A stretch of 64,000 nucleotides of DNA. Origin: a virus. Below are positions 29,328 through 55,822 of the stretch, piece after piece. The stretch is taken from the IMG/VR virus record IMGVR_UViG_3300033145_000849, positions 32,001-96,000 of that record, one strand, 5' to 3'. A program made the translations under genes and the position numbers. Below the pieces are notes generated by a model. That model did not search any database, had not been told where the DNA came from, and saw only the letters and a list, made by a program, of their open reading frames with translations. How positions within the stretch are numbered: position 1 is the stretch's first letter; each line of letters begins with the position of its first letter.

Positions 29328-29744
29328 TTACCCTATTCCTGGAGCCGCAAAACCAAAAGAACTTACTTTTTCTGGTGCCTTAGGAACTCTAGTAGTAGGA
29401 CTTTCTCCTGGACTAGCCATAACTTCTGCCTCTAAAGTTTTAGAATATGCCGTTGGGCGGCGAATTCTAACATACATGCCTTTTTCCAAAGCTACATACT
29501 TGTCTGGAACAATTGTATGATAGTTTATTATCTGAATTGGGATACCCTCTTCAACCTTATTGCCCACCATATCTATAAGGCTAGCATATGCTGTACCGTT
29601 TTCACTTGGCTTTTGGATATACCCATAAGGAGGTGGGTCTGGTAATTTTGCTGCTCCTGCAGTATGTGCTTGTCTATTAGCAGCTCTTTGCTGAGTTGCA
29701 TTTGTGGGAGCCTCTCCTTTTATTCCTCTATCTAGTTGGGACAT
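29328..29744 (-). CDS. Hypothetical baseplate protein (138 aa), possibly the OB-fold-like part of a split spike
   Basis: GGAGG RBS inside the upstream gene; lies directly after the hub gene. Confidence 0.55.
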   Translation of the reverse strand: MSQLDRGIKGEAPTNATQQRAANRQAHTAGAAKLPDPPPYGYIQKPSENGTAYASLIDMVGNKVEEGIPIQIINYHTIVPDKYVALEKGMYVRIRRPTAYSKTLEAEVMASPGESPTTRVPKAPEKVSSFGFAAPGIG

Positions 29745-32700
29745 TTGTTCCTCCTACCTTATCTGTAGTATAGCTATTTTGCCAGAAATTGCCTCTACTA
29801 TATTGGCCAGTACCTGTTTTAAACAAGTTAGTTACATAATCAATAGTGTCTTCCTTCCACTCATTCCAGACATTATCTCCATCTTGTTTCCAATTTCCAA
29901 GAGCAGTAGTCCAAGATGAGGACGGAATCTTTCTAGTTGGAACTCCACCGGCAAATGGACGGCCATGATATTGTAGTGGCGCCATGATAATAGGTCGAGC
30001 TAACTGTGTGTAATTAACGATCTTTTGCGATAACCAGCCACCAATAGAACCAATTAGATTTCCAGCAACACCAGCAGACCAAGCTAAATTTGGCCATACA
30101 AAGTTTCCTCCACCAAGTCTATCTCTGGTAAATTGTTCAATAACCATGCCTACAGCTTCAGCAGAAGAGATTAGAGACCATTCTGCAGCCTGAACTAACA
30201 TGTCGGGTTTAATTTCAGTAAGGAACCCATGTTCCTGATCAAACAGATGTGTAACCTGTTCTACCTCAACAGGTCCTATCATATCAGTATATCTATCAAC
30301 AACATAGCAGACATCATATGGCTTAATTTTACCATTGCCTATAATAATAATATCTCCCTTATAGATGTCCTTCATGTTCTGACATAGCAAAGAAAGAGCA
30401 TATCGTTTAGCTAGTCCTTCGTTAGTACAGTTGATAACATCTGGCAGAAGAAAAGTTCGAAGATCTTCTGCTGGAAGAGCATTATCTAGTTTAAGAGTAT
30501 AAGTTTCCTTACCTGAAGAAAGAAGTTTGCGCGCCTTGGCACCTTCGCCTCGAGCTCCAACTCCAACAGCTTCTACAGCAGAAGACAGCTTGAATTCCCT
30601 AAGCCACTCGATTGCTATAGTATTGCTAACTCCTCTAGAGTTGGCTTGTATATTATTTGCAACAATATGTTGTCCATCCGTAAGAAGATGATAATTCCGG
30701 AAGGGCTTAATGAAGCCATCTTTTAGAGCCTCGTTGAGTTGCTGTTCTCTTAAGGGTTGGGTCGCGACACTAGACTTGTGTTGGTTTTTTACTCTTTCAG
30801 CAGAAGCCCTGGCAACTCCAGCAAAATCACCATGCACTCCCATTGATCCTATTGAACTTCTCTTTGTTATTGGATGTTTATTCTCAATCTCTTTTATTTT
30901 ATTACGTAATACATCTTGTGCTCTCTGTTCTTCTGCATTCGGAGACCTAGCAAAATAAAGCTGGTTTGGAAGACCAAAGAACATAGTCATCCGTTCTCCA
31001 TATTCGTCTTTATATGGAACAGGAGACGCAATATAGTTAGGATGTCGCAGTTCCATTTCCTTAAAGATGTCCCAGATAGTTGTTCGATAGATAGTAAACT
31101 TAAGATCCTTCCAGGCCCAGCCATCGCCAAGTTCTTGAAGGTCATGTGCTGGGTGAGGTGCAAAGATATTGTCATCTTCTGGCTGAGGTCTAAACTGCCA
31201 TTTGTTAGTTAAGAGTCCTCTATTCTTGGTTCCTCCACCAGATGCAGCAGTCCATCTACCAAAGTGAATAACCTCTGGTTGTGCCATCATGTTTTCTAAT
31301 ATTTTACCAGTAGTAGCATCATCGCCAAAGCCCCATCCATACCAACCAAATATACCTGAAACAGAATGTGTAATAGGACCTTCAATGCCTTTAATGTCTT
31401 GAACAAGCTCTACTGCATAGCTTTGAGCTACAAGTTCTATTAAATCATCAGACTCAGAAAAACTGACACCCATAATTACACCATTAAAAACAGTTGGTAA
31501 ACGATCAGGATCGGAAGAATATCCCATGCGAAGACTGATATTCATGCCTTCCTGAAGCAAAAGAGAAGCAATAGGATTCTCTTTCCTAGTACCTACTTCC
31601 ATTGGATTCGGAGTTTCTACAGCAGCTTTACCTTGAGCTGTTAAAGGTTTGTCGCTGCCTTTGTTCTGACTATATTTTCTATTACTTAAGGTACCTGATA
31701 TGTTTGTTAACTGTATCACACATAAATCTGCAGCAATTTTACGGCTTTTAACTACACGAATAGACTTAACAGCATTATAGCTAAAGAAGTCATCGAAAGA
31801 GAGCCTCTTCTTTTCTCCAAAGTCATCTTCTATAAAGTATAATTTAAAGGTAGGAAAGGCCCGAATAAGACCTTGTCCCTGTCCCCTAAGCATGTCTCGA
31901 CTAAACTCGTTAACAGCAAGCATAATAGGAGAAGAAAGAGTTGATGTAACATCGTTCCTATAAACTTGAGTAGAAAGACGATCTGCTTTTTTCTTTTGTT
32001 TATCAGATACCTTTCTTTTTCTAAAAGCATCTGCGTTCATACGGTTCCAAGAAATAGGAACTTGCTCTTTGTTGGTTGGAATTGCTAACTTGGCAACCTT
32101 ATGTCTGCTTTGACCTCTTTTAACTTGTGTATCCCAACATTCAAAATGTAAATGAGGGTGCCTCATGCTATGGAATCCACTTCTACCAGAAACAGCTATA
32201 CACTCACCAGCTCGGACATGATATCCTGCTTTAATTTTAGGATTAATTTCTTGCAAATGAAGATACCTAGTATGACCTACTGGACCTTTAGGATGATTAA
32301 TCTCTATGTATCGACCTGCACCATCCCAATACAATGAACGCAATACCACTCCATCTGTTAAGGCATAAACATCAGTACCAACAGGAGTATTAACGTCTAC
32401 TCCCTTATGAACATAACCAATTCTTTTTCCCTTATTTTCTTTTTTCCATTGGTAGTATTCATCTATCGTTGCTGTGCGTATAGACTTTCCTATTCCTCCA
32501 TCTTTTTTTGATTTTTTGATTTGAGCTGGATCGACGCATCCAGCGGCAACTAAAAGATGATTAGATGTTCTCCAATCACGGCTTGCAGCTTTTTGTCTAT
32601 AGTGCCATCCTGCTCTAGACTGTCCAATGTCCCTAACATAACAAGGATTACTTTTACGAGTTAATGAAGCATAAGAAGCAACTGGACAATAAAAATCTAC

Positions 32701-35700
32701 TCCAGCTTTAGTTTCAGGTCTCTGACTAGAGTCTTCTCTTGGCCAGGTAGTCTTCAGGTTTTCAACGCCTTTCATCTCAGCAGAACTATATTTTGGATTA
32801 GAAGGAGAGTTTGGTCTATTGTTCTGCATATGTCCTGTAGTATCAAGGGGAATAGACCCATGTATTTTCCCCATAAAATCTCCATCCCATAAGAAAGACA
32901 TATCGGTGCCATGTTTAACTACACCATAAGGTTTAAGTTCAGGATTCTTTTTACCATAACTATTTCCAAGAGCTTTACCAGATCCATCTGGAACTATCTT
33001 GAGTGTTGTTTTTGGTTCACTTACAAGAGTACTATAATAAGAAAACCCTTGAGTAATGGAAGGTTGAAGTTTAGATACATCTCCTTGGTTTTTAAGCGTA
33101 GTTAAAGCTAAGGATTCTCCTCCAGCTGTGAGAAGAGGAACATATTTACTACTAAAATATTCGTCTACATTCTTCTGAGCACTTTCATAAGACTTAATAC
33201 TCATTTGTCTAGCAGCTGTAATCCAGGAAGAATCTATAAAGTTGTTGGCGTCAGTTCCTCCAAGACCACCATCATGTAGTGGGTACCATAAGTAAGAGTC
33301 TGGTTCATAGTCGAATAACGCGGTTTCACTAACGACTCCATTCTTGTCTGCTGCATATCCAGCTAGAGAAGAGAGCTGTTGGCGGAAATCTGGGTAAGCC
33401 ATAATTCCCTTGCTTAATCCATGCGAGTCCTTTATTTTTCTAAATCTTTCAAAAGCGGGTTCGTCAAGAAACAACCACTTGTCTATAAGTTCTTGTATTA
33501 GAGCTCTTTGTGCAGAGAGATAGGTCTGAAGACCCATGTCTGTCAATATACTTGTTCTCTTTTTAAAAACACCTACTGCACTTTGAGCTTCTTTATCTGG
33601 TTTTTTACCAAGCTTGCCTGTTTTCTTTTGCCAATTTAGAGTCTCTATTGCTTTTTTATAATCAGGTACTCGTCTCTCTGCAGCATACTTGTCTTTATAT
33701 TTTGCATACTTTGTTCCTTTAATAACAGCAGGAGGAAGATCACTTGTTCTATAGAATTTCTTTCTGTAAGCTTTATATCTTTGATCTACACTTTGAAGCA
33801 TTTTGTTTAAGCCTGGAACAAAATCAAGCTTGCCACCATTTGACTCAGTATCTCCAACAGAGACATATAAATTATATTCAGATAAACTATGTAAAGCTGC
33901 TTTGTATTGTTCCTCTCGACTCCAATCGTCAGGAAGACCATGAGTATCATATTGATATCCAGAACGAACTCCTTTGTAACGGAAGACTTCACTATGAACA
34001 TCCTTTAACCATTCGTTATAATTATTACGAGCTCTATCGATAAGAGCATTAATCGCTTCCTTGTTTTTATTCTGTGGAGAATTTTGTCTTTGTAATTTGT
34101 ACCAATCAATCTCGTACCATTCGTTCTGTCGATTTCGATATCCTTTTCGTCCCTCAATCGCCAAATGAACCTCTATCCATTTCCAAACTTCTTTGTAAAG
34201 GTCTTCATGACCTGTAATAAATGTTTGTTTTAATTGCTCAGGATTCTCGTCTTCTTTTGAATTACTTGTTAATCCAGCTTCTTGTAGGGTCATAGTAACC
34301 CGAGACCGACCTGGTTGATCTGGAATAGAAACAGTATTAATCCTGTATGTCACAAACTCCTTAAGATTAAGAAGGTTTAAGAAGTCATTATTAATAAATA
34401 GTGTTCGATAGCCAGCAGGAATTTGCTTAAACCTAAGAGACATGGTTTCTATCTTGTCATACATAGCGTTAAGCTCTGAAGCTGTTTCCTCAGGAACATT
34501 CATTACGAATGTTACGTTTGCATCTACGCTACCAATATGCTGAAAAGTTGGATACCTATAAGCTACTAGTGGAATTTGTGCCAAGATATTAGTAAAGGAC
34601 ACATCTATTTGTTCAATGATAGGTTTTGGACCATCTATAATAGAGCTAGGATCTATGTCTAGATTTCTTTTACGGCCCAAGATAACTACGCCGCCTGCGG
34701 TAGCATTAGATCCAGTTCCCTTCTGTATGATCTCTGTATCTATAACCTTTTTAAATCCATTAGCTAATGAACCTTCATCAGTTACTATTCCCTCGTCTTG
34801 TAGGGACTGCATAGTTTTAGCTTGTTTGGTAAGCATTCCAATAGCGTCACGTAGATTATCGCCATCGGCTCCCTGTAGTAATGAAGCAGAAGAGCTGATT
34901 CCTGTTTCACCTGAGCGTTCCATTAGTCTTTTAATAGTTTCTGATACAAGACCAGAAGTAGCAGAAGTAATTCCTTTTGACTCAGCAGAATTTATCTGTT
35001 TTCTAAGTTCTTCATTGATGTTTAAACCTTTTGCAACTAGCTTTCGATAAGCTATGTCTAATATTTCCTGATTACTAAGAGAGACTTTGCTTTCAGATGG
35101 ATCTTTTCCTGGAGACATAACATCTCCAATAACACCAAGAACTTCTTTAGGTTTTCTTAGCAAGGTATTGACCAAGTCAGCTGCCATTCGGTTAGCTAAT
35201 GCACTGGCCTTGGGTATCATCTCAAATTCTCTATACCAAAATCTAGTAGAATTATCCTCTCCGTCTTCGTGAGGCCATTTGGGAAGCTGTCCACTCTTTA
35301 CTTTGAATGGAGCATAAAAAGCTTTCCATGCTGGAGATTCCCAAGGATAGCCAGGTTTGTCGTTCTTTGCTCCAGACTTAAAGGCAAAGAGTGGAGTATA
35401 GGGGAAGTAGTTAAACCATTGAAAAACAAAAGATCCTTGAATAGCATTAGGCATTCCAAGATGTCCACAAGTGCTGAAACTCATACCAGAAAGAGCAAAT
35501 GCAAGAGGTCTGAATCTCTTATACTGAGTATATGTACCTGATACATCAAAAGCATCATCATTGGTATTGGTAGTCAAAAGCATCTTTTGAAGATAAGAGC
35601 TATAAATGGTACAGAAAGGAGTTGCCCTTAGTCCAGCTACAAGAGGAATAAGGCGCGATTCTCTATCGTCAGCGCCTTCGAATATGATATTAACAACTAC

Positions 35701-35964
35701 CTCTACCTTTCCATGTCCAGACTTAGTCTTCATAGAAGAATTAGTCCGTAAAGTGTTCCACTCATAATTTACAGAATCTTTGCTTATTGCTATTTGTGAT
35801 GGAGGAATTCGTAAAGCTACGTCATTAATAACGAAACTGTCTTCTCCTGCGTCTCCAACAATGGTCGGTTCCTGTCTTTCTCTTCTGGGATCAAGAGCCT
35901 TGGGTGCTTCTTCATTTAAGGTTAGACCAGGATTTTGGTAAGTAACAGATTTTCCAGTAGCCAA
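29728..35964 (-). CDS. Giant baseplate hub/tail-associated lysin (~2078 aa) with an M23 zinc endopeptidase domain
   Basis: HKGVD (HxxxD) near 32395-32409, TRYLHL, and HPHLHFE (HxH) near 32146-32154. C-terminal hub-like region (ISLRMGYSSD..LPTVFNGVI). GGAGG at 35975-35979 favours the TTG at 35964 over the one at 35973. Confidence 0.85.
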   Translation of the reverse strand: MATGKSVTYQNPGLTLNEEAPKALDPRRERQEPTIVGDAGEDSFVINDVALRIPPSQIAISKDSVNYEWNTLRTNSSMKTKSGHGKVEVVVNIIFEGADDRESRLIPLVAGLRATPFCTIYSSYLQKMLLTTNTNDDAFDVSGTYTQYKRFRPLAFALSGMSFSTCGHLGMPNAIQGSFVFQWFNYFPYTPLFAFKSGAKNDKPGYPWESPAWKAFYAPFKVKSGQLPKWPHEDGEDNSTRFWYREFEMIPKASALANRMAADLVNTLLRKPKEVLGVIGDVMSPGKDPSESKVSLSNQEILDIAYRKLVAKGLNINEELRKQINSAESKGITSATSGLVSETIKRLMERSGETGISSSASLLQGADGDNLRDAIGMLTKQAKTMQSLQDEGIVTDEGSLANGFKKVIDTEIIQKGTGSNATAGGVVILGRKRNLDIDPSSIIDGPKPIIEQIDVSFTNILAQIPLVAYRYPTFQHIGSVDANVTFVMNVPEETASELNAMYDKIETMSLRFKQIPAGYRTLFINNDFLNLLNLKEFVTYRINTVSIPDQPGRSRVTMTLQEAGLTSNSKEDENPEQLKQTFITGHEDLYKEVWKWIEVHLAIEGRKGYRNRQNEWYEIDWYKLQRQNSPQNKNKEAINALIDRARNNYNEWLKDVHSEVFRYKGVRSGYQYDTHGLPDDWSREEQYKAALHSLSEYNLYVSVGDTESNGGKLDFVPGLNKMLQSVDQRYKAYRKKFYRTSDLPPAVIKGTKYAKYKDKYAAERRVPDYKKAIETLNWQKKTGKLGKKPDKEAQSAVGVFKKRTSILTDMGLQTYLSAQRALIQELIDKWLFLDEPAFERFRKIKDSHGLSKGIMAYPDFRQQLSSLAGYAADKNGVVSETALFDYEPDSYLWYPLHDGGLGGTDANNFIDSSWITAARQMSIKSYESAQKNVDEYFSSKYVPLLTAGGESLALTTLKNQGDVSKLQPSITQGFSYYSTLVSEPKTTLKIVPDGSGKALGNSYGKKNPELKPYGVVKHGTDMSFLWDGDFMGKIHGSIPLDTTGHMQNNRPNSPSNPKYSSAEMKGVENLKTTWPREDSSQRPETKAGVDFYCPVASYASLTRKSNPCYVRDIGQSRAGWHYRQKAASRDWRTSNHLLVAAGCVDPAQIKKSKKDGGIGKSIRTATIDEYYQWKKENKGKRIGYVHKGVDVNTPVGTDVYALTDGVVLRSLYWDGAGRYIEINHPKGPVGHTRYLHLQEINPKIKAGYHVRAGECIAVSGRSGFHSMRHPHLHFECWDTQVKRGQSRHKVAKLAIPTNKEQVPISWNRMNADAFRKRKVSDKQKKKADRLSTQVYRNDVTSTLSSPIMLAVNEFSRDMLRGQGQGLIRAFPTFKLYFIEDDFGEKKRLSFDDFFSYNAVKSIRVVKSRKIAADLCVIQLTNISGTLSNRKYSQNKGSDKPLTAQGKAAVETPNPMEVGTRKENPIASLLLQEGMNISLRMGYSSDPDRLPTVFNGVIMGVSFSESDDLIELVAQSYAVELVQDIKGIEGPITHSVSGIFGWYGWGFGDDATTGKILENMMAQPEVIHFGRWTAASGGGTKNRGLLTNKWQFRPQPEDDNIFAPHPAHDLQELGDGWAWKDLKFTIYRTTIWDIFKEMELRHPNYIASPVPYKDEYGERMTMFFGLPNQLYFARSPNAEEQRAQDVLRNKIKEIENKHPITKRSSIGSMGVHGDFAGVARASAERVKNQHKSSVATQPLREQQLNEALKDGFIKPFRNYHLLTDGQHIVANNIQANSRGVSNTIAIEWLREFKLSSAVEAVGVGARGEGAKARKLLSSGKETYTLKLDNALPAEDLRTFLLPDVINCTNEGLAKRYALSLLCQNMKDIYKGDIIIIGNGKIKPYDVCYVVDRYTDMIGPVEVEQVTHLFDQEHGFLTEIKPDMLVQAAEWSLISSAEAVGMVIEQFTRDRLGGGNFVWPNLAWSAGVAGNLIGSIGGWLSQKIVNYTQLARPIIMAPLQYHGRPFAGGVPTRKIPSSSWTTALGNWKQDGDNVWNEWKEDTIDYVTNLFKTGTGQYSRGNFWQNSYTTDKVGGTNVPTR

Positions 35965-35993
35965 AAGCAACAAACCTCCGTGAAATTATTAGG

Positions 35994-38900
35994 TTACCCG
36001 TTTAATATATCAGATAGTTTCTGGGGCGTCAAAGATGATCGCCTGTCATTTATAGTAGAACTAACACTAGCTTGACCACCAACAGCATTACGTAATTGCT
36101 GGCTGAGAGAGCTATAGTCAGCTCCACCATCAGATTGTCCTAAAATAGAGATCTTATGTCTAGAGGGACCTGCAATCCTAGCTGTATTAGCAGAACCAAT
36201 TGGACTTGGTGCAGAGGGAGATCCTCTTGTAGCACTACCAGAATGTCCTCCTACAGGAAGGTTAGATCCACCAGAACCACTCTGAAGTATGGGTCTAGGA
36301 GGAGTATTGGCTCCTGGTCCTAAAGTCCTGGGAGGAGCGCTTAGTATCGTTGCTAATCCAATAGCTGCTGCTCCACCTAAAGCAACTGGTTTAGCCCATG
36401 GAATCATAGATCTTCCAGCTGCACCCATCCTGTTTACCATGCTCATGCCTTTACTAACGACATTAGCCATAGAGCCTTTTGGTGTAGCAACATCAGCAAA
36501 GAAAGATCCATAGGGAGACATTGCTAGTGCTTCTCGATTAGACATTGCGGCAATCTCTCTTGCTCCAGAAGGCTTAGCTTTTCCCATGAGAAGATTTCTT
36601 AAACGGAAAGCATTAACTCCTCCTACTTGAACATTCTCCATTGCCCTTAAAGAATGAGCTACGTTTTGAGCAGTTTTATCTATACCTATACCAGGAATAA
36701 ACTCTGTAGTTCGCCTGCCAGAGATAGGGTCTTCTATAAGAGCTGTAAGGCCACCTTCTAATGCTGCTTTACCCTCAGCGGTTGATTTGTCCATAACACT
36801 TCTGGCAACATTACTAATACTTCCTCCATCTCTACTCTTCATTGATTGGGCTATTTGGTCAAACAAGTCTATCATCTTTGTTGATTCTGAAGCTTTAATA
36901 TGTTTACCAGAAATAGGAGTATTCTCCATCCATTCAAGAAGACCTAAAGCTTTCTGTGAATCTGCACCCGACAGTTTTCCTGCATTAGCTAACACAGCAG
37001 CCCTGCCTTCCTGTAAAGCCATGGACACTTTACCAAGAGCACCAGGTCTCTTTGTGATTCCAACAGCTACCGTTTGCCCAGCCATAATCTGCCTTAAGGA
37101 AGTAACACCTTCTTGACCAGCTTTTGCTTTAAGAATCTGAGTTCTAATACTGTGTTCTCTATAAGCCGCCATGGCTTCTGGATCTGCCAAATGTGTTGCA
37201 AGGTTTTTCTCTAGTTGAGGACCTGCAAGTATAGCTGATATAACATCTCCGTCAGTATCAGCAGCCATTCCAATCATGGGAGAAAGCAAGATAGGACTAG
37301 CAGCGCCTTCTGCGATCCGTCTTGCTCCGTCTCGTTGAAACTTTCTTAGAGCATTTCCCTCAAGTTTACCTTGAGCCATAACAGTGTTTCGGACCTCTGT
37401 ATTCATAGCAATTACAGCTTCTTTCCCAGCTATCTTTCTGAACCATACAGCTTGTGTACTGTAAGGTCCTATGTGAGGATGTCTAGCAACCATGCCAGCA
37501 ATTCGTTCTCCAGCCATAAACTTTTTCTGCATTCCAGTAACGTCATGTCCAAGTTTCTCTAGATCTTTAAACATTTTCTCAGCATAATTGGCTGTAATAC
37601 CAGCAGTAAATCTGTCTTTCAAAATATTAACATCACGTATTCCTGGTTGTACTGCTGTAAGAGCCATGCTACCAGGTAGTCTTCCTCTTAGAAGCCCGCC
37701 AACTCCTCCAACTGTCAAAGCTTTAGAATATGCTAGTTCAGATCCTAACTTATCAACCTGTGCCATCATACCTTCTTTAGTTAAGTTCCTAGCGTCATAC
37801 TCACCTGCAGCATCAATAACATTCCTATAAGCTCTAGATAGATCTGTGTTAACAACCTTGCCTGTAGCAGTTTTATATCCAGCAAGCTGTTTTAGATTAG
37901 TTGCTGAAGGCATATAGATATCGCCGACTCCTTTGATCCTTAAGTAGCCAGCTTCTGATGGCATTGCTAAGCTTGACATGTCCTTAAGACCAGCAGAAAT
38001 CTCTTGAGCAGATCTGGCACCGGATACTTTCTTAAGACCAGTTACACTTCCTAATGCCTTTTCTAATTCTGATTGCTCCATTAGTCTTTCTGGATAAAAG
38101 CCCATCATTCTCTCTGCTATATCTTTCTGTATCTTTGGTCCGAGAGCTCCAAAGTGAGCACCGCCTGCCAGTTCAAACATTCTAGGTTCGATAGTAGCTG
38201 CTCGACCTGCCCCTGGTCCCCCTAGTCCACCAAAAAACATTTGAGTAGTTCCAACAGCTTTACCAAGAGACATTTCTCTTGCTTCCCTCTCTGATATTTC
38301 CATTCCTTGACCCGTCATCCAATCATAGATTCCTGCAGCTCCACCTTTAATATCGAAGACAGTAGGTACAGCACCAAACACTCCACCAATTTGTTTAGAA
38401 GTAAGTCTAGACTCTTTACCTATAGACCAAAGTTGTTTAAGCATTAATTCGTCAGAGAATCCACTAGCAGCTTTAGTTGCTTCTCGGGCAGCTGCACGCA
38501 TATTAGCAACTTCAACAAAAGGAGACTCTACGAACTTACGTGACAATTCACCAAACTGTTTGTTACCAGCTTGACTCATATTGACTTGAGACATTTCCCA
38601 AAGAGAAGTAAACATTTGGTCGTAGTGTAATTGTCTATTCTTTTTAAGTTCTGTCATAGAGATAATAGCGTCTGCTCCTGATATACCGAACAACTTTTTA
38701 AACTTGTCCATATATCCACTATCAGCAACCATTGCCATTCCCTTATGTCCACCAAGCAATTTTGCATACTTAGGATCAGTTATTTCTCTTTCCCCTACTA
38801 GACTAATAATATCCCCTCGACTTGCACTTCCTTCGATTTGAGTGCCAGCAACTATTCTCATTGCACTAGGAGCAGTAACAGGTCTTCCTTCAGGAGACAT

Positions 38901-40607
38901 TCCTAGCAGGTCTCCTTCTTTTACCATTTGATTAAAATTCCAAATATTAGAGCCAGGTCGACTCGAAGTAGCTTCTGCAGCATCTATCATTTTTTTAATT
39001 TCTGGGGCAACATCACCACTAGCAATAATAAATGGCATTGTTTCCTTAACTGCTAACTGCTTCATTGCTTCCTTGGAAATTACCATCTGTCCTTCTGGAG
39101 AAACTCCAAGTCTCATCATCTGTGCACCGTATTGGTCAGCAGAAAGATAAGCAGCAGATACCATAGGAGCTTCAACTCCAACTCTTTTAGCAGCCCATAA
39201 ATAATCAAACTGTCGTTGATCTGAAGCCATTGCTTTCATTGCAGATGCAGTAGGGGAAAATTCAGGACGAAGAAACTTACCAGGGAATCTAGCTATTTCA
39301 GATGCTTCAGGAACAAGAGAAGCCAATTCTCTAATATCAGTTGGATACATTACTGATTTAGCGATTTGATTAGCAGATAGTCCTGGGAACAAAGAGACCT
39401 GTTTGCCTGCTGCTTCTGTAGCATAACCACGAGCTATAGCTGTCTGATATTCTGTAGCCGACAATAATGGAAGATTGAATCCACGAGCTTTAGAATATGC
39501 AGCTTCTCCTCTCTTTCGTGGTCTGAGCATCCTTATGCCTCTAGACCTAATGTCAATATATTCTTCAAGACCTTGGCTTTGTGCAATCGCAGGAGATACA
39601 TATTCTGTAGTAGCAGTTATCATTTGTTCCCATTGGTGCACCATGTCATGCATATGACTACGTGTTAAACGATGTTGTTTCATCATCTCAGGAATTAAAT
39701 CTGTTACTGCTCTATTAAGGGCAAATTCTCCATGACTCATAGCCTTTCCTAATTGTCCTCCAACTAGTTCTCTGTACTCACCAGTAATATATTTAGCACC
39801 ACTTTTAATCATTACACCAGGTTGTCCTTTTAATCCCATGCCAATATTAAGCTTCAGCTCTCCAGGAAGACTACCTCCTCTAAGACTCAATTGCATTTGT
39901 CTACCTAAACCTTCTCTACTTGTTATCTCTATGTGAGCTTTAGCTCCAGTTAGTTTTTCCATCTGGAGAATACTTTGCCGAGCTCCCTCATTTTTTAAAG
40001 ATGTCCAGGGCCTAGCAATATGTTCTGTTCCTTCAAGAACAGGTAGTCCAAGAGCTTCCATTCCTACAGGTAGACCTTGTCGTGCTCTAGATTCTAAAAC
40101 GGGAATATCTTCCAAAAAGATAGAGGCTGCTCGGTCTAGGTGAATTCCTCCTCCTTGTCCAAGAACGATAGCTAATTCCCTAGCTGCTCCGTCAGCAGTA
40201 GTAGCATACTGTAATTTTTGGGAAACAATCCTAGTAGTCATGCCTGTTGGATCAGCTGCAGTAGCTGCCCTAGACCATGCGTCACGTATTTGGTCCACTG
40301 TTAGCTTGGTGGTTTTACCAAAATTGTTTAAGTTTTTAAGTTGCCATCGTTTCCTGGCAGAGGGAACTTGTTGAAAGTTTAAGTTGCCTGTATCTGTTTG
40401 GGTTACCTGGCCAGGCATATTCTTCAAGGTCTCTTGTGCAAAATCCCTAATGCCTACACCAGTAGCAGAATGAGATAATTGAGTTGGTGTGTTTTGAAGA
40501 GCATCTCTAATGCCAGTTAGATTACGAGCACCATATCCCACTCCAATTGCAAAGGGAGTAGCAATTAATGCAGTTTTAAATATAGATCCGCCATTATCAT
40601 CAGACAC
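35994..40607 (-). CDS. Putative single-chain two-barrel virion RNA polymerase in a tape-measure-like protein (1537 aa)
   Basis: Ordered motifs PEGQMVISKE, VKEGDLLG, KYAKLLGGHKG (38739-38762), DAIIS, LLRGRLPGS, VARHPHIGP (37476-37484), MAADTDGD (37245-37259). Hydrophobic Gly/Ala segments near both ends. Confidence 0.8.
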   Translation of the reverse strand: MSDDNGGSIFKTALIATPFAIGVGYGARNLTGIRDALQNTPTQLSHSATGVGIRDFAQETLKNMPGQVTQTDTGNLNFQQVPSARKRWQLKNLNNFGKTTKLTVDQIRDAWSRAATAADPTGMTTRIVSQKLQYATTADGAARELAIVLGQGGGIHLDRAASIFLEDIPVLESRARQGLPVGMEALGLPVLEGTEHIARPWTSLKNEGARQSILQMEKLTGAKAHIEITSREGLGRQMQLSLRGGSLPGELKLNIGMGLKGQPGVMIKSGAKYITGEYRELVGGQLGKAMSHGEFALNRAVTDLIPEMMKQHRLTRSHMHDMVHQWEQMITATTEYVSPAIAQSQGLEEYIDIRSRGIRMLRPRKRGEAAYSKARGFNLPLLSATEYQTAIARGYATEAAGKQVSLFPGLSANQIAKSVMYPTDIRELASLVPEASEIARFPGKFLRPEFSPTASAMKAMASDQRQFDYLWAAKRVGVEAPMVSAAYLSADQYGAQMMRLGVSPEGQMVISKEAMKQLAVKETMPFIIASGDVAPEIKKMIDAAEATSSRPGSNIWNFNQMVKEGDLLGMSPEGRPVTAPSAMRIVAGTQIEGSASRGDIISLVGEREITDPKYAKLLGGHKGMAMVADSGYMDKFKKLFGISGADAIISMTELKKNRQLHYDQMFTSLWEMSQVNMSQAGNKQFGELSRKFVESPFVEVANMRAAAREATKAASGFSDELMLKQLWSIGKESRLTSKQIGGVFGAVPTVFDIKGGAAGIYDWMTGQGMEISEREAREMSLGKAVGTTQMFFGGLGGPGAGRAATIEPRMFELAGGAHFGALGPKIQKDIAERMMGFYPERLMEQSELEKALGSVTGLKKVSGARSAQEISAGLKDMSSLAMPSEAGYLRIKGVGDIYMPSATNLKQLAGYKTATGKVVNTDLSRAYRNVIDAAGEYDARNLTKEGMMAQVDKLGSELAYSKALTVGGVGGLLRGRLPGSMALTAVQPGIRDVNILKDRFTAGITANYAEKMFKDLEKLGHDVTGMQKKFMAGERIAGMVARHPHIGPYSTQAVWFRKIAGKEAVIAMNTEVRNTVMAQGKLEGNALRKFQRDGARRIAEGAASPILLSPMIGMAADTDGDVISAILAGPQLEKNLATHLADPEAMAAYREHSIRTQILKAKAGQEGVTSLRQIMAGQTVAVGITKRPGALGKVSMALQEGRAAVLANAGKLSGADSQKALGLLEWMENTPISGKHIKASESTKMIDLFDQIAQSMKSRDGGSISNVARSVMDKSTAEGKAALEGGLTALIEDPISGRRTTEFIPGIGIDKTAQNVAHSLRAMENVQVGGVNAFRLRNLLMGKAKPSGAREIAAMSNREALAMSPYGSFFADVATPKGSMANVVSKGMSMVNRMGAAGRSMIPWAKPVALGGAAAIGLATILSAPPRTLGPGANTPPRPILQSGSGGSNLPVGGHSGSATRGSPSAPSPIGSANTARIAGPSRHKISILGQSDGGADYSSLSQQLRNAVGGQASVSSTINDRRSSLTPQKLSDILNG

Positions 40608-43600
40608 TATTCGAGACCTCTTCTTCGTATAAGTTCTTTGATTGATTGGGTTCTATCTTCAGAGATGTTTAAATCAATTCTATTTTCAGGAAGCCCATGT
40701 AATGGAGTTACGTTAACGTTAAAGGTACGAATATTATGTCCTGTCAAGACCTCGTTTATTCTCTTCCGAACCTCGTCTGCATCCATTCCTGCACTTGCCT
40801 CAGCAGCTGCTTCTGGCAAATATGGTCTACGATCTGCCTGTCTCTGCCTATCAGGCCATAGATCATAATCATACATATTTTCCCCTTCATTTTCTACTAT
40901 CTTAAGCTTAATATCATCTAGGTCTACAGCTGGATGCCATCCTACCCAGTCAGGACCAGGCAATGCGCGACCATCTAGTTCTTCTGATAACAGCTTAGTT
41001 CTTCTATACCAATCAGGATAAGACTCTTGAGGTTGTCGGGTTTTCAGATATTCTTCCCACAGATCCTTTGTCTTTGGCATCCCCTCAGCTTCTCTTTCTC
41101 GATATAGACCTTCAATCTCAGCTTCTGCGGCCTCAACCTGTCCTTCTGATAGGAGTCCCTGGTCTATAGCTTCTCTCATGTCACTAGCATCTTGAAGTTT
41201 CCAACGTGCAAGATATAGCGATTTCTCATTCTCGGGCACCATCTTCATAATCTCTGAACGTTCTTCCATGTTAGCTTCAGAGAATGCTGTAAAGTAATCC
41301 CTCTCTCTTCTTGGAAGTGAGCGATATAGTTGAGAAAAGTTAAAGGTGAAAGGATTAATCCCAAAGAGGGTCTCTCTACGCTTCTGTTCGTATTCCTTAA
41401 TGGACCCTTCATCTTCACCAAATTGGGCAGCTCTCTTAAGCCTGGTGTATTTAACATATTTTAGGATGTCAAAATAATCTTCCAGTCCACGTTTCTTTTC
41501 TATATGTTCAGGAATACCCTCCCATCCAAGGGCATTTTTTGTAGTCTCAATGAAGGGTTTAAAGAAGTCCCTAATAGGATGACCCCAGAAAGCGCTCTGG
41601 GTACCATATAGCTGGGTAGCTTTATAGTCTTCAACAGCTGTCCTCTGATGAACTAGTTTAGAAGCTGGAGCAACAGGTGTTAGATATTCAAGAGGAGTTT
41701 CAGAGCCATGAGCCAAAGTTTCCCAATAACTTCCAACAGTTCGCTCAAACCAACCAGGTCCAGATTCTGCTTTAGCAGCTTCATTAGCATTGATTAGCAG
41801 CTGTTGTACTGGAGTCACAGCCTGGTCTCTATACTTATAGGGAGAAAATTGCTTGCGAACCTTCTTAGCTGAGACCTGACTAAGGATCTCTTTGTATTCA
41901 GTATGCTCTTCTGCTGTTAATTGCTGACGTTTTGCAGCTCCCCTAACCCGAGATAAAGCCGTCCTGTACTTATCTGTATATGGAGCTACATCAGCTAGAA
42001 TCCTAAGGCGATCTAGATCAGGGTAGTTTTCAGGTGCAACTCCTTCTAGGTTAGGGTGTAAGGCTGCGTAGCCGGTCCCAGGAAGCCTTAACTCTCCTTC
42101 AGGTACCTTGACAAAGGGGTCACCATGTAAAAAGTCAGGAGAACGCTCTCCGGGCCCAGGAAGCCATTCTGGCATTAAGTTCCTAATAGGATTATATAGG
42201 GGTGTCTGGCGCCTTCTATGTGGATAGAGACGTCTTATTAGTTCTGTAGTTCCCAGACCACCGCCCAGCTCTAAGTCCCAGTATGCTCGTTCAGCACCAT
42301 ACATCCTGCGAGCTGACTCAAGCTGCATCTCCTGAGCAAAAGTATCTGATTCTCCAGTAATAGACTCTTTAATAGCAGTCATGGTAAAGCCTGGAAGACC
42401 AACCATTTCTGTCATACGATAAATTTGTTCTCCAATAACACCTTTGGTTCCATAAGGAGAGATAGGAGCTCCTGTTCCTTCTTCTCCTAATTCTGGAATG
42501 GCAGGTCTTTGGCCAAATCTAGGTGCCATCTCCAGAACTTCTGTTCCACCAGAACCTTCTCTTGTCCATTCATCTACATGCATCAATTTGGGAGGCTTTA
42601 CTAGTCTGCCTATAGTTGCAGCAAGAAGGGGCCCAATAAACGGAACGTCTTCAAAAGCTGTACCTGTTATAGGATAAGGTCTCTCACGGTAATGTTTTTG
42701 CTCTAGTTCGTAGGTGAAGTTTTCTTTCCATAAACGATCAAATGGAGAAAGTTCTCCGTCTCCGTAGATAGACTTTTCTTTAGCTCTCGCTAACATTCTT
42801 GGATACCAGTGAGGTCTGAACCTGTCTATCCTAGTTCCTTCATAAGGGGAGTTGTGGACTAAAAACGTACCCGCTTGAAGTAGATGGTCTGGATGGTCTA
42901 TCTCAAAATCATAAACAGTATCGTTGTAATATTCATGCTTTACGTCTATTACTCTTGTATAGAGTTTATGGTTCTTCCATTGATATCCTTGTCCTGGCTT
43001 ACCAGCTGTATCAGGATTCCAACCAATTCGGTATCTGTAGCTATTCTTCCCATCTTTCTTTATGTAATTACATTTTTCTACCTTAGGAATTGTTGGGACA
43101 ATACCTTGTGATAAAAGAATAGTTTGAACAAAGTCTATAAATTGCCTACGACAAGCTGAGAGAACTTTTCTTTTTCTATCAGAATGTCCATCTCCTCTCC
43201 ATAATCCAAGCAGAAGAGCGTCATGGAACCATCTAGAAGTATTAAGAAACCACCAGGGTATCTCTTTATCGTTTGACCTATCAGATTGATAAAACAGTTC
43301 AAAAAAGACTCGGGACAGCAACGAGTTGCAAATCCTGACTATCCAACAGCCTTCGTCAGTATCTTTTTTACCCTTCTTAAATCTAACCGTAATATCAATA
43401 TCAAATAAGCTTTTTACAATATGTTTAATATCGTCAACAATCCACTTCTCATCTAACGCATGTACGGTTTCTATCATCCCAGGAAGACCGTTTTTAAACG
43501 ACAAGTTTCCTTCAGCTAGGAAATATCCGAATAACCTTCCTAATCTATGGGTCAATTCTATTTGTCGAGGAATGCCAGAGCCTCTGCTTTGCTGAAGTCG

Positions 43601-45679
43601 TTTGGTGTACCAGTTAATTTGTGCTGGCAATATCTTGTCTTCAGAAATAATAAACTGTCCAACTTTAATAAAATCCTCTAACTCAATTTGTTGAATAGGA
43701 TATTCTTGTAGTTGTAGTTGAGGTATGGGCACCTGAACGAAATCGCCTTCCTCTATCTCTCCAGCTTCTACTTCTTCTACAATCCTTTCGTCTTTAAGGA
43801 TATGGTATCCATGACTATTCTTTTCTTTCATAACAGGAAGAACATGATTTTCTGTTAGCCCTGTAGTAAGGTTCCTATCTAGACAAGTAGTAATCTGGAC
43901 GACTGTACCTTGATGAAACCTCTTATAAATTCCAAGAATTTTGTGTTTCTGGCCATCACTACCAATAGCAGTGTCTTCAAGAGAGATGTCTTTAGCTTGT
44001 TTTGATTGGCCAAATCCTGTGTAAATCTCATTAGTTGCAACGTTACATCGCCCAAACTCCCACCATTTACCTTTCTTGATGGCTACTTGCTGTTGTCCAG
44101 AATAGAGTCTTTCAAGCTCATCTGGTCTAGTACTGGGAGTTAATGCTCCAGGAATGAAAGGAGCTACTGCAGCAAGACCCAGAGCACCACCAGCTAAAGC
44201 TCTAATCTTACCAGGAGTAATATCCCCTAACATTCTAAGGAATCCACCAGTAATGGTTCTTCTTCTTTGAAGTTTAGATATTCCTCTTGCTACCTTTCCT
44301 TGCCATCCACCAAGAGTTTTAGTTGTTTGTTCTTTGATAAGGGCAAGAGTTTTAGCGTCAGCTGCACTTTCTAATGCTGGAGATATTTTTTTACCATAGA
44401 CAGCTTGACGAAAGAATTCTGATTCTGCACTAGCAGCTATAGCAGCTTGGTCACCACTAAGACCAGCTGTTCTCATCGAAACCTGTCTCATTAATCTACC
44501 AGCATAACCAACCCCAACTCCACCTAGAGTACCCATGATAGGGAAGGCTAATAGACGAGACAATTCAGTACTACCAGGGGCTACTTCTTCTTGTGCTTCT
44601 CGATAAGCATGTCCACCTGTTAGTTCAGCTAGCTTAGATATAGCTAATTGGCTTCTGGTCCATAAGGAACCAAAACCAGCAGTTATTCCTTCTGCAAATA
44701 TAGTGCTGTCTAGAAGGCTAGATTGGCGCGCTTCATAGTCTAATTGCTGATAGCCTAAAAAAGTAGCAGACCCTAGTAGTCCTAGTTTTCCAGTTATTTT
44801 TGCAACTGTCTTTAAGCCACTAGAGGGAACAACTCCAAAGCGAAGATTTTTAAGGAGAGGAACTTTTTCAAATATTGATTTAAAAGGTTCAAGTTCAAAA
44901 GGAGCTCTAGCTAACTGATTGATTCTTTCAGCTAGAGAAGTACCATATCCAGCTAGAAATCTGCCTGCTGCCTGAGTTCTACTGTGTCCTCCTGTAAATG
45001 AAATGACCTCATCAGCAAGAGTTCCTTGAGCAGTTTGAAATGGAATCCGTTGGTTAAATACTTTTCCTGCCCATGCTGCTTCTTTAGTTGCAAACTGATG
45101 GATAGTCTCTGTAGATAACTTTTCAGATAATGGACCTCCAGCTAATGAACGAGCATATCCAGCTACAAATGCTGACATAGCTCCTACTGGAGAACGAACA
45201 ACACCAGCATGACGTAGAAGAACTTCTCTACCAGTTTTACCGTAGAGGAGTTGTCCAGACTCAAAACGAAAGCCGGCTTCCATCATCTTGCTGGCATTCA
45301 TACTCTTGCCAGTTACTCTGCTTAAATGATCTAACCAACCACGACCTTGACCTGTTGCTCTAATGTCCCTGATTATGTCTGGGGAAAAATACTTATATTG
45401 GAGAGAAGGGGTCTCCAGACTAGACAGCATTTGGCTGACTTGGAAGGTTCTAAACACTCTACCGGGAGAGTATTCCTCAATACCTCTAGCTATTTGAGAA
45501 TATAGATCGAAACCTCTATAGCCAGGACGTAGCTGGGCACGGCCAAATAGAGCTAAAGCTCCTATTCCTGCGCCAAACTTAGCGAATCCAAGAGCTTGTT
45601 CTCCTGTAGAATTAGGGACTATCTGAGGACCAGAAGTCCATTCAGAGCTAGAGGTATTGTATTGATACGGATAGGCCAA
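40607..45679 (-). CDS. Tape-measure-position/ejected virion protein with an intein (1690-aa precursor, ~1291 aa spliced)
   Basis: Follows the tail chaperones; Gly/Ala-rich hydrophobic segments in the N-terminal third; intein at residues 545-943. Confidence 0.75.
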   Translation of the reverse strand: MAYPYQYNTSSSEWTSGPQIVPNSTGEQALGFAKFGAGIGALALFGRAQLRPGYRGFDLYSQIARGIEEYSPGRVFRTFQVSQMLSSLETPSLQYKYFSPDIIRDIRATGQGRGWLDHLSRVTGKSMNASKMMEAGFRFESGQLLYGKTGREVLLRHAGVVRSPVGAMSAFVAGYARSLAGGPLSEKLSTETIHQFATKEAAWAGKVFNQRIPFQTAQGTLADEVISFTGGHSRTQAAGRFLAGYGTSLAERINQLARAPFELEPFKSIFEKVPLLKNLRFGVVPSSGLKTVAKITGKLGLLGSATFLGYQQLDYEARQSSLLDSTIFAEGITAGFGSLWTRSQLAISKLAELTGGHAYREAQEEVAPGSTELSRLLAFPIMGTLGGVGVGYAGRLMRQVSMRTAGLSGDQAAIAASAESEFFRQAVYGKKISPALESAADAKTLALIKEQTTKTLGGWQGKVARGISKLQRRRTITGGFLRMLGDITPGKIRALAGGALGLAAVAPFIPGALTPSTRPDELERLYSGQQQVAIKKGKWWEFGRCNVATNEIYTGFGQSKQAKDISLEDTAIGSDGQKHKILGIYKRFHQGTVVQITTCLDRNLTTGLTENHVLPVMKEKNSHGYHILKDERIVEEVEAGEIEEGDFVQVPIPQLQLQEYPIQQIELEDFIKVGQFIISEDKILPAQINWYTKRLQQSRGSGIPRQIELTHRLGRLFGYFLAEGNLSFKNGLPGMIETVHALDEKWIVDDIKHIVKSLFDIDITVRFKKGKKDTDEGCWIVRICNSLLSRVFFELFYQSDRSNDKEIPWWFLNTSRWFHDALLLGLWRGDGHSDRKRKVLSACRRQFIDFVQTILLSQGIVPTIPKVEKCNYIKKDGKNSYRYRIGWNPDTAGKPGQGYQWKNHKLYTRVIDVKHEYYNDTVYDFEIDHPDHLLQAGTFLVHNSPYEGTRIDRFRPHWYPRMLARAKEKSIYGDGELSPFDRLWKENFTYELEQKHYRERPYPITGTAFEDVPFIGPLLAATIGRLVKPPKLMHVDEWTREGSGGTEVLEMAPRFGQRPAIPELGEEGTGAPISPYGTKGVIGEQIYRMTEMVGLPGFTMTAIKESITGESDTFAQEMQLESARRMYGAERAYWDLELGGGLGTTELIRRLYPHRRRQTPLYNPIRNLMPEWLPGPGERSPDFLHGDPFVKVPEGELRLPGTGYAALHPNLEGVAPENYPDLDRLRILADVAPYTDKYRTALSRVRGAAKRQQLTAEEHTEYKEILSQVSAKKVRKQFSPYKYRDQAVTPVQQLLINANEAAKAESGPGWFERTVGSYWETLAHGSETPLEYLTPVAPASKLVHQRTAVEDYKATQLYGTQSAFWGHPIRDFFKPFIETTKNALGWEGIPEHIEKKRGLEDYFDILKYVKYTRLKRAAQFGEDEGSIKEYEQKRRETLFGINPFTFNFSQLYRSLPRRERDYFTAFSEANMEERSEIMKMVPENEKSLYLARWKLQDASDMREAIDQGLLSEGQVEAAEAEIEGLYREREAEGMPKTKDLWEEYLKTRQPQESYPDWYRRTKLLSEELDGRALPGPDWVGWHPAVDLDDIKLKIVENEGENMYDYDLWPDRQRQADRRPYLPEAAAEASAGMDADEVRKRINEVLTGHNIRTFNVNVTPLHGLPENRIDLNISEDRTQSIKELIRRRGLE
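42851..44047 (-). mobile_element. Intein (Hint domain) with LAGLIDADG homing endonuclease, 399 aa
   Basis: N-terminal Cys (EFGR|CNVATN), block B LTENHVL, block C LFGYFLAEG, block E LLGLWRGDG, blocks F/G VYDFEI...FLVHN|S with Ser at +1. Confidence 0.95.
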
Positions 45680-49276: not shown

Positions 49277-49978
49277 TTACGCTCCTAAACTAACCCCACC
49301 CTGACTAGCGATCTGTTCTGCAAGCTTACTTGCTACAGGAGTCCATCCAATAATACTTCTAGCCACATAAGTATGTTGCTGTTCAGACACGATGTCATCA
49401 ATAGACACACCGTAGCCTTCGTTGAGTACTTCGATTCCGAAGATTCTCATAACAGCAAGTGCTCCATACTCATTAGCAGCAGCTAACGTAACATCAAACG
49501 GAGGAATCTGATCTGTATACCAGGCTCCAGCCAGTTCTTGGTCGCTACCTACACTTGAAATTGGAGACTCTTGATTCTGCACAGTATCTGCAGCAGTAAC
49601 TCCACTTGTAGAATTTAGTGTAGCTTCCAATGATGTACCATCTCTAGTTGCAGTACTAAACTGTGGACGAATATCGTCCTTGTCAGACTGGAACTTTAGT
49701 CCTTGGTCAGGACTATATCCACCCAATGACGAAAGCATAACATGCCTATCAAACATCACGAATACTAGTGTTCCGGCAATTCCACGTTTTCCCCTAGAGT
49801 AAGAACGAGGATCTGCAGAACCCATAGTATAAATAGGGGCCTTCTCTCGAGTGATGCTATAACTGATCGCCTGTAATTCAGCGATAATCTTGTTAGCAAA
49901 CACACCCTTAATATCGACTCCCGAAAAGCTGTTATAGCTCTGGGCATAAGTTGGTGTAACATTTCCATTACTCGGCAT
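49277..49978 (-). CDS. Major tail tube protein (233 aa)
   Basis: SFSGVDI, REKAPIYTMGS..RGKRGIAGTLVF, DQIPPFDVT..NEYG; directly after the sheath and followed by a terminator. Confidence 0.88.
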   Translation of the reverse strand: MPSNGNVTPTYAQSYNSFSGVDIKGVFANKIIAELQAISYSITREKAPIYTMGSADPRSYSRGKRGIAGTLVFVMFDRHVMLSSLGGYSPDQGLKFQSDKDDIRPQFSTATRDGTSLEATLNSTSGVTAADTVQNQESPISSVGSDQELAGAWYTDQIPPFDVTLAAANEYGALAVMRIFGIEVLNEGYGVSIDDIVSEQQHTYVARSIIGWTPVASKLAEQIASQGGVSLGA

Positions 49979-50000
49979 TATTTACCCTCTCCTTATCCTT

Positions 50001-51875: not shown

Positions 51876-51903
51876 ATAAAGTTGCCTCCCTTATACTTCG
51901 TGT

Positions 51904-54993: not shown

Positions 54994-55037
54994 TTAGGAG
55001 TCACCACCCAGGTGAGACTAAAAAACTCACAAATACA

Positions 55038-55046
55038 ATTTTAGCA
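55038..55046 (-). promoter_or_regulatory. Possible extended -10 promoter (TGCTAAAAT) upstream of the neck/tail genes
   Basis: TGnTAAAAT in a 61-bp intergenic gap; no good -35 element. Confidence 0.35.
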
Positions 55047-55054
55047 TAGTATCC

Positions 55055-55717: not shown

Positions 55718-55745
55718 TTATATCTCCTGAAGTTAAAATGGACAT

Positions 55746-55786: not shown

Positions 55787-55822
55787 GATTATCTGTAAAT
55801 CGTTATTCAACGATTCTTACCA

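Follow-up and report, generated by a model that had tools for sequence, protein, structure and literature searches.

Injection of two-barrel RNA polymerases (RNAPs) is established for crAss-like podoviruses and for a single Thermus siphovirus; in each case the enzyme was hidden in a giant virion protein without detectable sequence similarity. The crAss-like enzyme, gp66 of phi14:2, comes from a podovirus, whose capsid carries it. For the siphovirus enzyme, gp96 of P23-45, Chaban et al. (2024, PMC10770324) propose a coupling of transcription to DNA entry, raise the problem of passage through the tail tube, and refer to a survey of two-barrel RNAP genes in viruses (Supplementary Data 4 of that paper). 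Here, we analyze a gene in a 64-kb stretch of viral DNA (the window; positions 32,001 to 96,000 of the 128,266-bp IMG/VR record IMGVR_UViG_3300033145_000849, hereafter G000). The gene, referred to as the target, is a minus-strand open reading frame (ORF) at 35994..40607 of the window, which runs uninterrupted from a GTG start over 1537 codons, while the plus-strand translation of the same segment holds many stops. A reading of the letters alone (the original prediction) had proposed that it encodes a compact, highly diverged single-chain RNAP at the tape-measure locus of a myovirus. Our results identify the target as a member of a new, populous and unannotated family of sequence-orphan two-barrel polymerases, as judged from predicted structure, located in the tail module of contractile-tailed phages.

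The core of the protein (residues 400-1300; 901 residues) was modelled with AlphaFold2 using an alignment of the target and 51 of its 117 relatives (52 sequences). The resulting model has a mean predicted local distance difference test score (pLDDT) of 92.2 and a predicted template modelling score (pTM) of 0.90. When this model was compared with the PDB using Foldseek, 133 matches were obtained at E ≤ 1e-3, with a best E of 1.8e-5, and the best 50 of these 133 were all RNAP chains of bacterial, plastid or poxvirus origin, including both beta-type and beta-prime-type subunits. Likewise, in an independent search of 48,161 representative chains with VIA-align, the top 19 matches were all two-barrel polymerases. 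Single-chain enzymes matched by VIA-align include QDE-1 (Z 12.5, 386 aligned residues, root-mean-square deviation (rmsd) 4.4 Å, model residues 1-866), P74-26 gp62 (Z 11.7, 327 aligned), maize RDR2 (Z 11.7, 387 aligned) and P23-45 gp96 (Z 10.6, 293 aligned, rmsd 4.2 Å); the crAss-like phi14:2 gp66 (PDB 6vr4) follows lower in the list, with both of its barrels aligned (Z 6.6, 404 aligned).

The two types of subunit fall on different parts of the model. Beta subunits (plastid, AR9, phiKZ, vaccinia, Pol I, Xanthomonas and African swine fever virus) align only to model residues 1-404, which are residues 400-803 of the protein, with Z between 9.9 and 12.3, whereas beta-prime-type subunits align only to model residues 457-886 (residues 856-1285). 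The single-chain enzymes QDE-1, RDR2, P74-26 gp62 and P23-45 gp96 cover both halves. This is the pattern expected for a single chain in which a beta-like module is followed by a beta-prime-like module. Isolated double-psi beta-barrel (DPBB) domains, namely those of CDC48-N, VAT-N and designed DPBB proteins, match model residues 580-750 with Z 7.8-8.9 and rmsd 2.0-2.5 Å. Both predicted barrels can be superposed together on QDE-1 (386 residues, 4.4 Å), which would imply the usual arrangement, with the two facing one active-site cleft. The barrel order put forward in the original prediction, and its expectation that AlphaFold and Foldseek would recover two polymerase barrels, are thus supported by the model and by both structure searches. 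Judging from the predicted structure, the target almost certainly has a two-barrel polymerase fold.

All seven motifs named in the original prediction are present in the target protein at the residues it gave, and the codons read back correctly for D1117, D1119 and D1121 and for K616 and K622. To assess their conservation, the target was aligned with every relative that reaches 1,350 residues (117 proteins; n = 118 in total), at 21-42% identity to it. Each of D1117, D1119, D1121, G569, R809, P900, P1044, E1228 and K1235 is present in 118 of the 118 sequences. Nearly invariant are E807 (117/118), P808 and R1042 (116/118 each), G979 (115/118), K616 (113/118), K622 (112/118, with Arg in four others), S980 (112/118) and H1236 (107/118). 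A metal-binding-type DxDxD motif is therefore present in the beta-prime-like barrel (DTDGD, residues 1117-1121), and two conserved basic residues on adjacent strands of the model are present in the beta-like barrel. The lysines of catalytic type are accordingly kept in nearly all homologues. DxDGD itself is conserved in its three aspartates and not in its glycine: position 1120 is Ala in 75 of the 118 sequences and Gly in just 32, so that the family motif is better written DxD[AG]D. The second barrel is the best-conserved region (mean identity 34%), compared with 19-20% for the N-terminal 200 residues. The residues picked out from the sequence are invariant or nearly so among 118 relatives and are thus under the strictest selection.

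None of this is visible to sequence searches. No Pfam family matches the target at E ≤ 1 and no PHROGs family matches it; tblastn against 50,697 phage records (INPHARED) returned no relative, and phmmer against PDB sequences returned nothing at E ≤ 10. Searched with a profile of the 118-member family, the PDB sequences yielded no RNAP; the three rows returned (calmodulin, MCM and a designed repeat protein) were at chance level (E ≥ 0.1). Nevertheless, the target (NEVERTHELESS) is not an orphan. An exhaustive HMMER search with residues 430-1250 identified 172 metagenomic cluster representatives at E ≤ 1e-3 (clusters at 50% identity), 115 of them at E ≤ 1e-30 and nearly all 1,430-1,600 residues long; the usual length in the family is about 1450-1550 residues. 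A word-indexed protein search recovered only two relatives. Of 10 relative clusters checked for names, one was named, as 'hypothetical protein'. No paralogy was found between the target and its two giant neighbour proteins. No paper on the family was found in full-text searches of the literature, nor any description of it in the portions searched of PMC7824862, PMC12390700 and PMC13282480; Supplementary Data 4 of Chaban et al. (2024) may list it or its probable counterpart in Acinetobacter phage ME3, gp036.

The domain map derived from the model and the alignment is given in the table below. The original prediction had directed attention to residues of about 450-1200; these lie within the polymerase part, which appears to be larger, extending from about residue 204 to residue 1290. 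The evidence for the N-terminal boundary comes from a separate model of residues 1-460 (pLDDT 83.6, with residues 1-80 poorly predicted), which gave no Foldseek match at E ≤ 1e-3, the best row being the RNAP beta chain 6vvt_C at E 0.09. Residues 204-460 align by VIA-align to the AR9 non-virion RNAP chain 7s00_c (Z 7.1, 185 aligned) and to plastid, vaccinia and Xanthomonas beta subunits (Z 6.3, 187-220 aligned). As these scores are within the range of chance arrangements, they are read only as consistent with a polymerase core that begins near residue 204. A CARD-like identity of residues 81-203 was considered and rejected, this segment being a generic helical bundle that matches CARD-like and designed bundles alike. 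By position, the connector between the barrels may serve as a clamp, and the helical region after the second barrel is a candidate for the bridge helix and trigger loop. A hydrophobic peak is found near the N-terminus in 50 of the 118 family members, and a peak corresponding to the Ala/Gly-rich segment of the C-terminal module in 79 of 118.

Table. Features of the target protein and of its two giant neighbours in the window.
Feature	Target residues	Window coordinates	Strand	Basis or remark
Upstream giant gene (giant A), 1690 aa including intein		40607..45679	-	Orthologue of ME3 gp035 and 0305phi8-36 gp145 (virion protein)
N-terminal segment with mildly hydrophobic stretch (SIFKTALIATPFAIGVGYGA)	1-80	40368..40607	-	pLDDT <50 at residues 1-30, 43-45 and 65-77
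Helical bundle, no specific match	81-203	39999..40367	-	VIA-align Z ≤ 6.8
Region weakly resembling N-terminal lobes of RNAP beta	204-460	39228..39998	-	VIA-align Z 6.3-7.1
Predicted beta-like double-psi barrel module	461-803	38199..39227	-	Beta subunits at model 1-404
Motif PEGQMVISKE	504-513
Motif VKEGDLLGMSPEG	562-574
Motif KYAKLLGGHKGMAMV	613-627
K616...K622 (KLLGGHK), basic pair of beta-like barrel	616-622	38742..38762	-	Model strands E215-220 and E224-229
Motif GADAIIS	644-650
Mostly helical inter-barrel connector in clamp position, beginning with EPR (E807, P808, R809)	804-965	37713..38198	-	Model helices 423-457 and 523-568
Predicted beta-prime-like double-psi barrel (LPGS, RHPxIGPYS, DxDGD)	966-1150	37158..37712	-	DPBB domains at model 580-750
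Motif GGLLRGRLPGSMALTAV	970-986
Motif GMVARHPHIGPYSTQAV	1038-1054
Motif MAADTDGDVI	1114-1123
DTDGD (D1117, D1119, D1121), predicted metal-binding triad	1117-1121	37245..37259	-	Each Asp in 118/118
Post-barrel helical region including LLEWMENTPISGKH	1151-1290	36738..37157	-	Beta-prime/largest-subunit chains reach model 869-887; E1228 and K1235 invariant
C-terminal module: hydrophobic segment, Pro/Gly/Ser linker, conserved C-end (...DRRSSLTPQKLSDIL)	1291-1537	35997..36737	-	Common to 0305phi8-36 gp146
Ala/Gly-rich hydrophobic segment	1407-1425	36333-36389	-
Downstream giant gene (giant C), 2081 aa, Peptidase_M23		29728..35973	-	Orthologue of 0305phi8-36 gp147 (hub/lysin) and ME3 gp037

The genes around the target all lie on the minus strand, in the order portal, major head, sheath, two tube-like genes, small genes, giant A, target, giant C and baseplate wedge. 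By head and sheath proteins, the nearest cultured phages are Acinetobacter phage ME3, Bacillus phage 0305phi8-36 and a few relatives (eight records per query, 30-37% identity), and both named phages also have a block of three giant genes after their tube and chaperone genes. Giant A matches ME3 gp035 (phmmer E 3.6e-66) and 0305phi8-36 gp145 (E 3e-64); giant C carries its Peptidase_M23 domain at residues 1188-1282 (E 7.2e-20) and matches gp147 (E 5.9e-38) and ME3 gp037 (E 5.3e-32). With flanks orthologous to gp145 and gp147, the target occupies the slot of 0305phi8-36 gp146, the record of which reads 'hypothetical tape measure protein' and marks it as a virion protein by mass spectrometry. In the account of Hardies et al. 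(2007, PMC2147016), gp146 was called tape measure through its correlation with tail length, and its last 60 residues alone are conserved in the lineage. In agreement with that conserved C-end, a C-terminal sub-profile of the target family matches gp146 at residues 2376-2518 (29.3 bits, E 3.2e-10 among seven sequences). The assignment to the tape-measure locus of a myovirus is thus borne out by the sheath, tube and baseplate flanks. In its details the earlier description needed amending: the gene, for which no strand had been stated, is on the minus strand and is the second of three giants, and it is giant A that directly follows the chaperone-like genes.

The start codon of the target overlaps the stop codon of giant A by one base (TAGTG), with a purine-rich GAAGAGG just 5' of it, which indicates that the target is probably translationally coupled to the upstream giant gene. 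The arrangement recurs in the seven IMG/VR loci that hold a target relative, two of which have identical numbers and probably represent one phage. As far as the contigs reach, all seven show sheath, tube, small or chaperone-like genes, giant A, target, giant C with M23, and baseplate. Across these loci, the target is the fastest-evolving member of the block (26-38% identity; giant A shows 51-65% and the sheath 59-66%). A scan of 185,579 prokaryotic species genomes with two patterns matched 47 pattern stretches, none of them a target relative; hence nothing points to a prophage form, and no host could be assigned. The target does not have the long, mostly extended or helical chain by which a tape-measure protein sets the length of the tail, since about 1,090 of its 1,537 residues are predicted to be globular polymerase and only its ends could extend.

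Some further features of the locus were recorded. Giant A contains an intein with a LAGLIDADG endonuclease at residues 622-943 (Pfam E 7e-8 and 7e-6), without which it is about 1,290 residues long, and has hydrophobic segments at residues 376-394 and 492-513. Its orthologues in the related loci range from 1,300 to 2,111 residues, a spread that suggests differing intein loads. About 110 kb of G000 (1-110000, including the whole window) run without interruption on the minus strand and hold mainly structural genes, among them numerous giant ORFs of 700-2,081 codons; as a virion module this is unusually large. Past the window end by 16 kb, at G000:C1:112002-112190, three to four tandem GC-rich repeats of 45-48 nt (GCCAACCCGAGCTCTTGTGCTTCGCTCCCTTCGGTCGCTC...) lie where this structural block gives way to a run of small genes on the plus strand.

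Viral structure predictions point to cultured relatives. Against the BFVD database, the core model gave 18 Foldseek matches at E ≤ 1e-3. The list is headed by an unnamed protein (1.9e-9), followed by a metagenomic 'minor tail protein' (4.8e-9) and two proteins of ME3, below which stand RNAP subunits of poxviruses and giant viruses. One of the ME3 entries, A0A172Q021, is present as two pieces of 801 and 802 residues (E 3.4e-7 and 1.2e-3), the sum of which, 1,603, equals the length of gp036; going by this length only, we infer that the entry is gp036. In ME3, gp036 (1,603 aa, 'hypothetical protein') is the protein in the slot of the target. Additionally, a sub-profile of barrel B matches gp036 at residues 520-651 (17 bits) with both lysines retained, and the best barrel-A alignment places GGDHDQD at 1217; both matches are weak and collinear with the target. 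Alignment of the family with single sequences by hhalign was set aside, as its probabilities for ME3 gp036 (6%) and 0305phi8-36 gp146 (58%) are unusable alone. The Microcystis myoviruses Ma-LMM01 and MaMV-DC likewise encode giant proteins that match the model (BFVD ranks 8 and 11; E 1.1e-4 and 2.5e-4; probability 0.82 and 1.00), and from this structural likeness they may be further hidden two-barrel polymerases.

Other polymerases were sought in the same genomes. In G000, which is estimated to be 54% complete, there is no match to PF00623 or PF00562, and none to PF05183 at E ≤ 10; searches with PF00940 are uninformative, as the control genomes were silent too. A complete relative of 188,653 bp with terminal repeats (G001), which carries a family member at 131712-136358, has no target paralogue by the family profile and no match to PF05183 (RNA-dependent RNA polymerase, RdRP), PF00623 (Rpb1_2) or Sigma70_r2. 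Its six largest non-structural ORFs encode Pol III alpha, ribonucleotide reductase, two AAA/Clp-type ATPases, a protein with a weak ligase match and one without hits, and thus no RNAP, and phmmer found in it no homologue of ME3 gp152, ME3 gp187 or 0305phi8-36 gp99. A diverged polymerase could escape such searches in G001, as the target itself does. The Pol III alpha, ribonucleotide reductase and AAA ATPase genes of G001 (63077-67096, 53690-57439 and 49357-51912) each contain an intein with LAGLIDADG or HNH, and inteins are unusually frequent in the clade of the target.

A separate polymerase is, on the other hand, encoded by 0305phi8-36 and apparently also by ME3. In 0305phi8-36 it is a Pfam-detectable YonO/RdRP-like protein near the right end, gp99, which is also mentioned by Hardies et al. 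(2007, PMC2147016) and by Iyer et al. (2021, PMC7824862); its motif reads GGADTDGD. In ME3 (NC_041884.1 222114-226849), gp152 (798 aa), which ends in ...LHVRNPS, is followed by the endonuclease gp153 and then by gp154 (333 aa), which has SDVDGD at residue 34. The BFVD entry A0A172Q0S6, of the same length as gp152 (798 aa), matches the target model with E 5.4e-7. Together, gp152 and gp154 seem to be a second two-barrel polymerase split by an endonuclease gene, at a location comparable to that of gp99. The three ME3 genes are annotated as hypothetical or endonuclease.

Fold, motif conservation and gene position are observed directly or in the model, and the following scheme for catalysis, packaging, injection, template and timing is what we infer from them. 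The target would be a tail-module protein of about 170 kDa, the central 1,090 or so residues of which (about 204-1290) would form a single-chain two-barrel RNAP, consisting from N to C of a beta-like lobe, the beta-like barrel with K616 and K622, the helical connector, the beta-prime-like barrel with D1117, D1119 and D1121, and the candidate bridge-helix/trigger-loop region. This core would be flanked by a partly hydrophobic stretch of about 200 N-terminal residues and by a C-terminal module of about 250 residues that is otherwise found on the tape-measure protein of the lineage. Made along with the tail through translational coupling to the giant virion protein upstream, the target would become a component of the virion, probably located within the tail lumen or beneath it, and be expelled unfolded with the DNA. 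At or in the host cell it would refold and transcribe the first phage genes without the host polymerase, possibly being held at the envelope by its hydrophobic segments. We consider it very probable that the target is an active polymerase and probable that it is packaged in the virion; that early-gene transcription is its main role is a view to which we incline more cautiously. Taken as a whole, the description of a tail-module, single-chain two-barrel RNAP that is carried in the virion, injected and used to transcribe early genes appears likely. A bolder version is tentative and rather doubtful. It holds that the protein in the tape-measure slot is the only RNAP of the phage, kept in the tail in unfolded form until contraction forces it through the tube, anchored at the membrane by its hydrophobic C-terminal module and refolded there, both transcribing and thereby helping to draw in the leading genome end. 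Injected two-barrel polymerases would then have arisen independently a third time, after the crAss-like phages and P23-45, and for the first time in a myovirus.

Several points weigh against the proposed scheme. The tail tube is too narrow for a core above 100 kDa in its folded state, so that unfolding must be assumed. The virion evidence is second-hand, consisting of synteny and of about 150 C-terminal residues in common with gp146, itself a protein without DxDxD. The genome of the target is just over half recovered, and no repeated promoter-like motif was detected in early-looking regions: a search for 9-mers shared by at least four such intergenic regions gave none in G000 (18 regions) and two weak words in G001 (45 regions). 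On the structural side, the VIA alignments span 290-390 of the 901 modelled residues at rmsd 4.2-5.2 Å, and Foldseek TM-scores are low (0.13-0.17, with rmsd 7-12 Å, among the matches listed). No sequence method used here, whether Pfam, phmmer, the 118-sequence profile against the PDB or, for gp99, hhalign and hmmsearch, links the target to a polymerase. The low TM-scores and the missing profile match to any RNAP family are also what would be seen if the motifs had arisen by chance and the model were an artefact. Such an explanation is nonetheless hard to credit in view of the confidence of the model, the separate and collinear halves matched by beta and beta-prime chains while single-chain enzymes span both, and the fact that the residues picked from sequence turned out to be the invariant ones in 118 diverged relatives.

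If the target is an active two-barrel polymerase, it might still be made late with the tail genes and act inside the cell, for example in late-gene transcription or replication priming, without ever being packaged. The record of gp99 has no virion-mass-spectrometry note, unlike those of gp145 and gp146, so the lineage is able to use intracellular single-chain RNAPs; moreover, the protein actually detected in virions, gp146, is the one that lacks DxDxD. We regard this alternative as improbable, given that the target is fixed between orthologues of two virion proteins in all seven loci and joined to one of them by the one-base stop/start overlap, that its C-terminal module is common to a tape-measure protein, and that a late-made enzyme could not serve early genes while G001 offers no other phage polymerase candidate. 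Alternatively, the target could be packaged and ejected for a main job other than early mRNA synthesis, as a DNA motor or anchor, an RNA-dependent polymerase, a primase, or chiefly as a tail protein that sets length or forms a channel and has a polymerase domain attached. In favour of this, QDE-1, the best structural match, is described as having both RNA- and DNA-templated activity (PMC9508822), the target sits in the tape-measure slot and has hydrophobic segments, and a coupling of transcription to DNA entry has been proposed for gp96 (Chaban et al. 2024, PMC10770324). The globular polymerase leaves too little extended chain for a ruler, however, the invariance of the catalytic triad argues for selection on catalysis, and no PolD chain is among the 50 VIA-align matches listed; a different main job is thus unlikely, if somewhat less so than an unpackaged enzyme. 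The reading of the target as an injected polymerase for early genes is retained here.

The family adds a populous group, encoded in the tape-measure slot of jumbo-type phages that have contractile tails and are relatives of 0305phi8-36 and ME3. If its members are active and packaged, host-independent early transcription by an injected polymerase of cellular type would recur across all three tail morphotypes. It would then have to be explained in mechanical terms how an enzyme above 100 kDa moves along a contractile tail, and the family would provide a compact new polymerase scaffold to compare with QDE-1 and YonO. Because ME3 is cultured, and gp036 would be a cultured member of the family, the question is directly testable.

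Within the same slot, the closest comparisons are ME3 gp036, which shares position and weak collinear sequence matches with the target and is too diverged for tblastn and hhalign, and 0305phi8-36 gp146 (NC_009760.1 52623-60236), with which the target shares its C-terminal 150 or so residues. At 2,537 residues, gp146 is 1,000 longer than the target, lacks DxDxD and does not align outside the C-terminus. Either one branch gained the polymerase by insertion, or the other lost it or had something else take its place. The multisubunit RNAPs of the phiKZ and AR9 type differ in having beta and beta-prime on separate chains, as opposed to the one chain of the target, and in being recognized by Rpb1 and Rpb2 profiles. 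A single-chain two-barrel polymerase within a giant protein that is packaged in the virion, as proposed for the target, is phi14:2 gp66; its structural match to the target is weak, and no sequence similarity between them was detected. Enzymes of the QDE-1/RDR2/YonO type (PF05183) are the best structural matches and have the same order of a beta-like and then a beta-prime-like barrel in one chain, but PF05183 does not match the target, and the likeness is one of fold and not of sequence membership. Their relative gp99 has GGADTDGD where the target has MAADTDGD, and is unlike it in lying among non-structural genes near the genome end, while the target lies in the tail module.

With P23-45 gp96, the target shares a single-chain two-barrel polymerase at the tape-measure position, a DxDGD site and a structural match across both barrels. 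Like the target, gp96 is described as invisible to sequence searches save for its motif (Chaban et al. 2024, PMC10770324; PDB 8h2m and 8h2n). There is no sign of sequence homology to the gp96/gp64 family, as the PDB chains of gp96 and gp62 were returned neither by phmmer nor by the family profile. The two differ further in several respects: gp96 comes from a Thermus siphovirus, whereas the phage of the target is contractile, with a sheath gene; gp96 has 5,002 residues with the polymerase at its N-terminal end, whereas that of the 1,537-residue target is central; the metallopeptidase of the target lineage is on a separate downstream protein; and gp96 is described as clamp-less, whereas the target has a helical connector of about 160 residues. 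By function and location, P23-45 gp96 is the nearest known system, and by fold the nearest are QDE-1, RDR2 and the P23-45/P74-26 enzymes.

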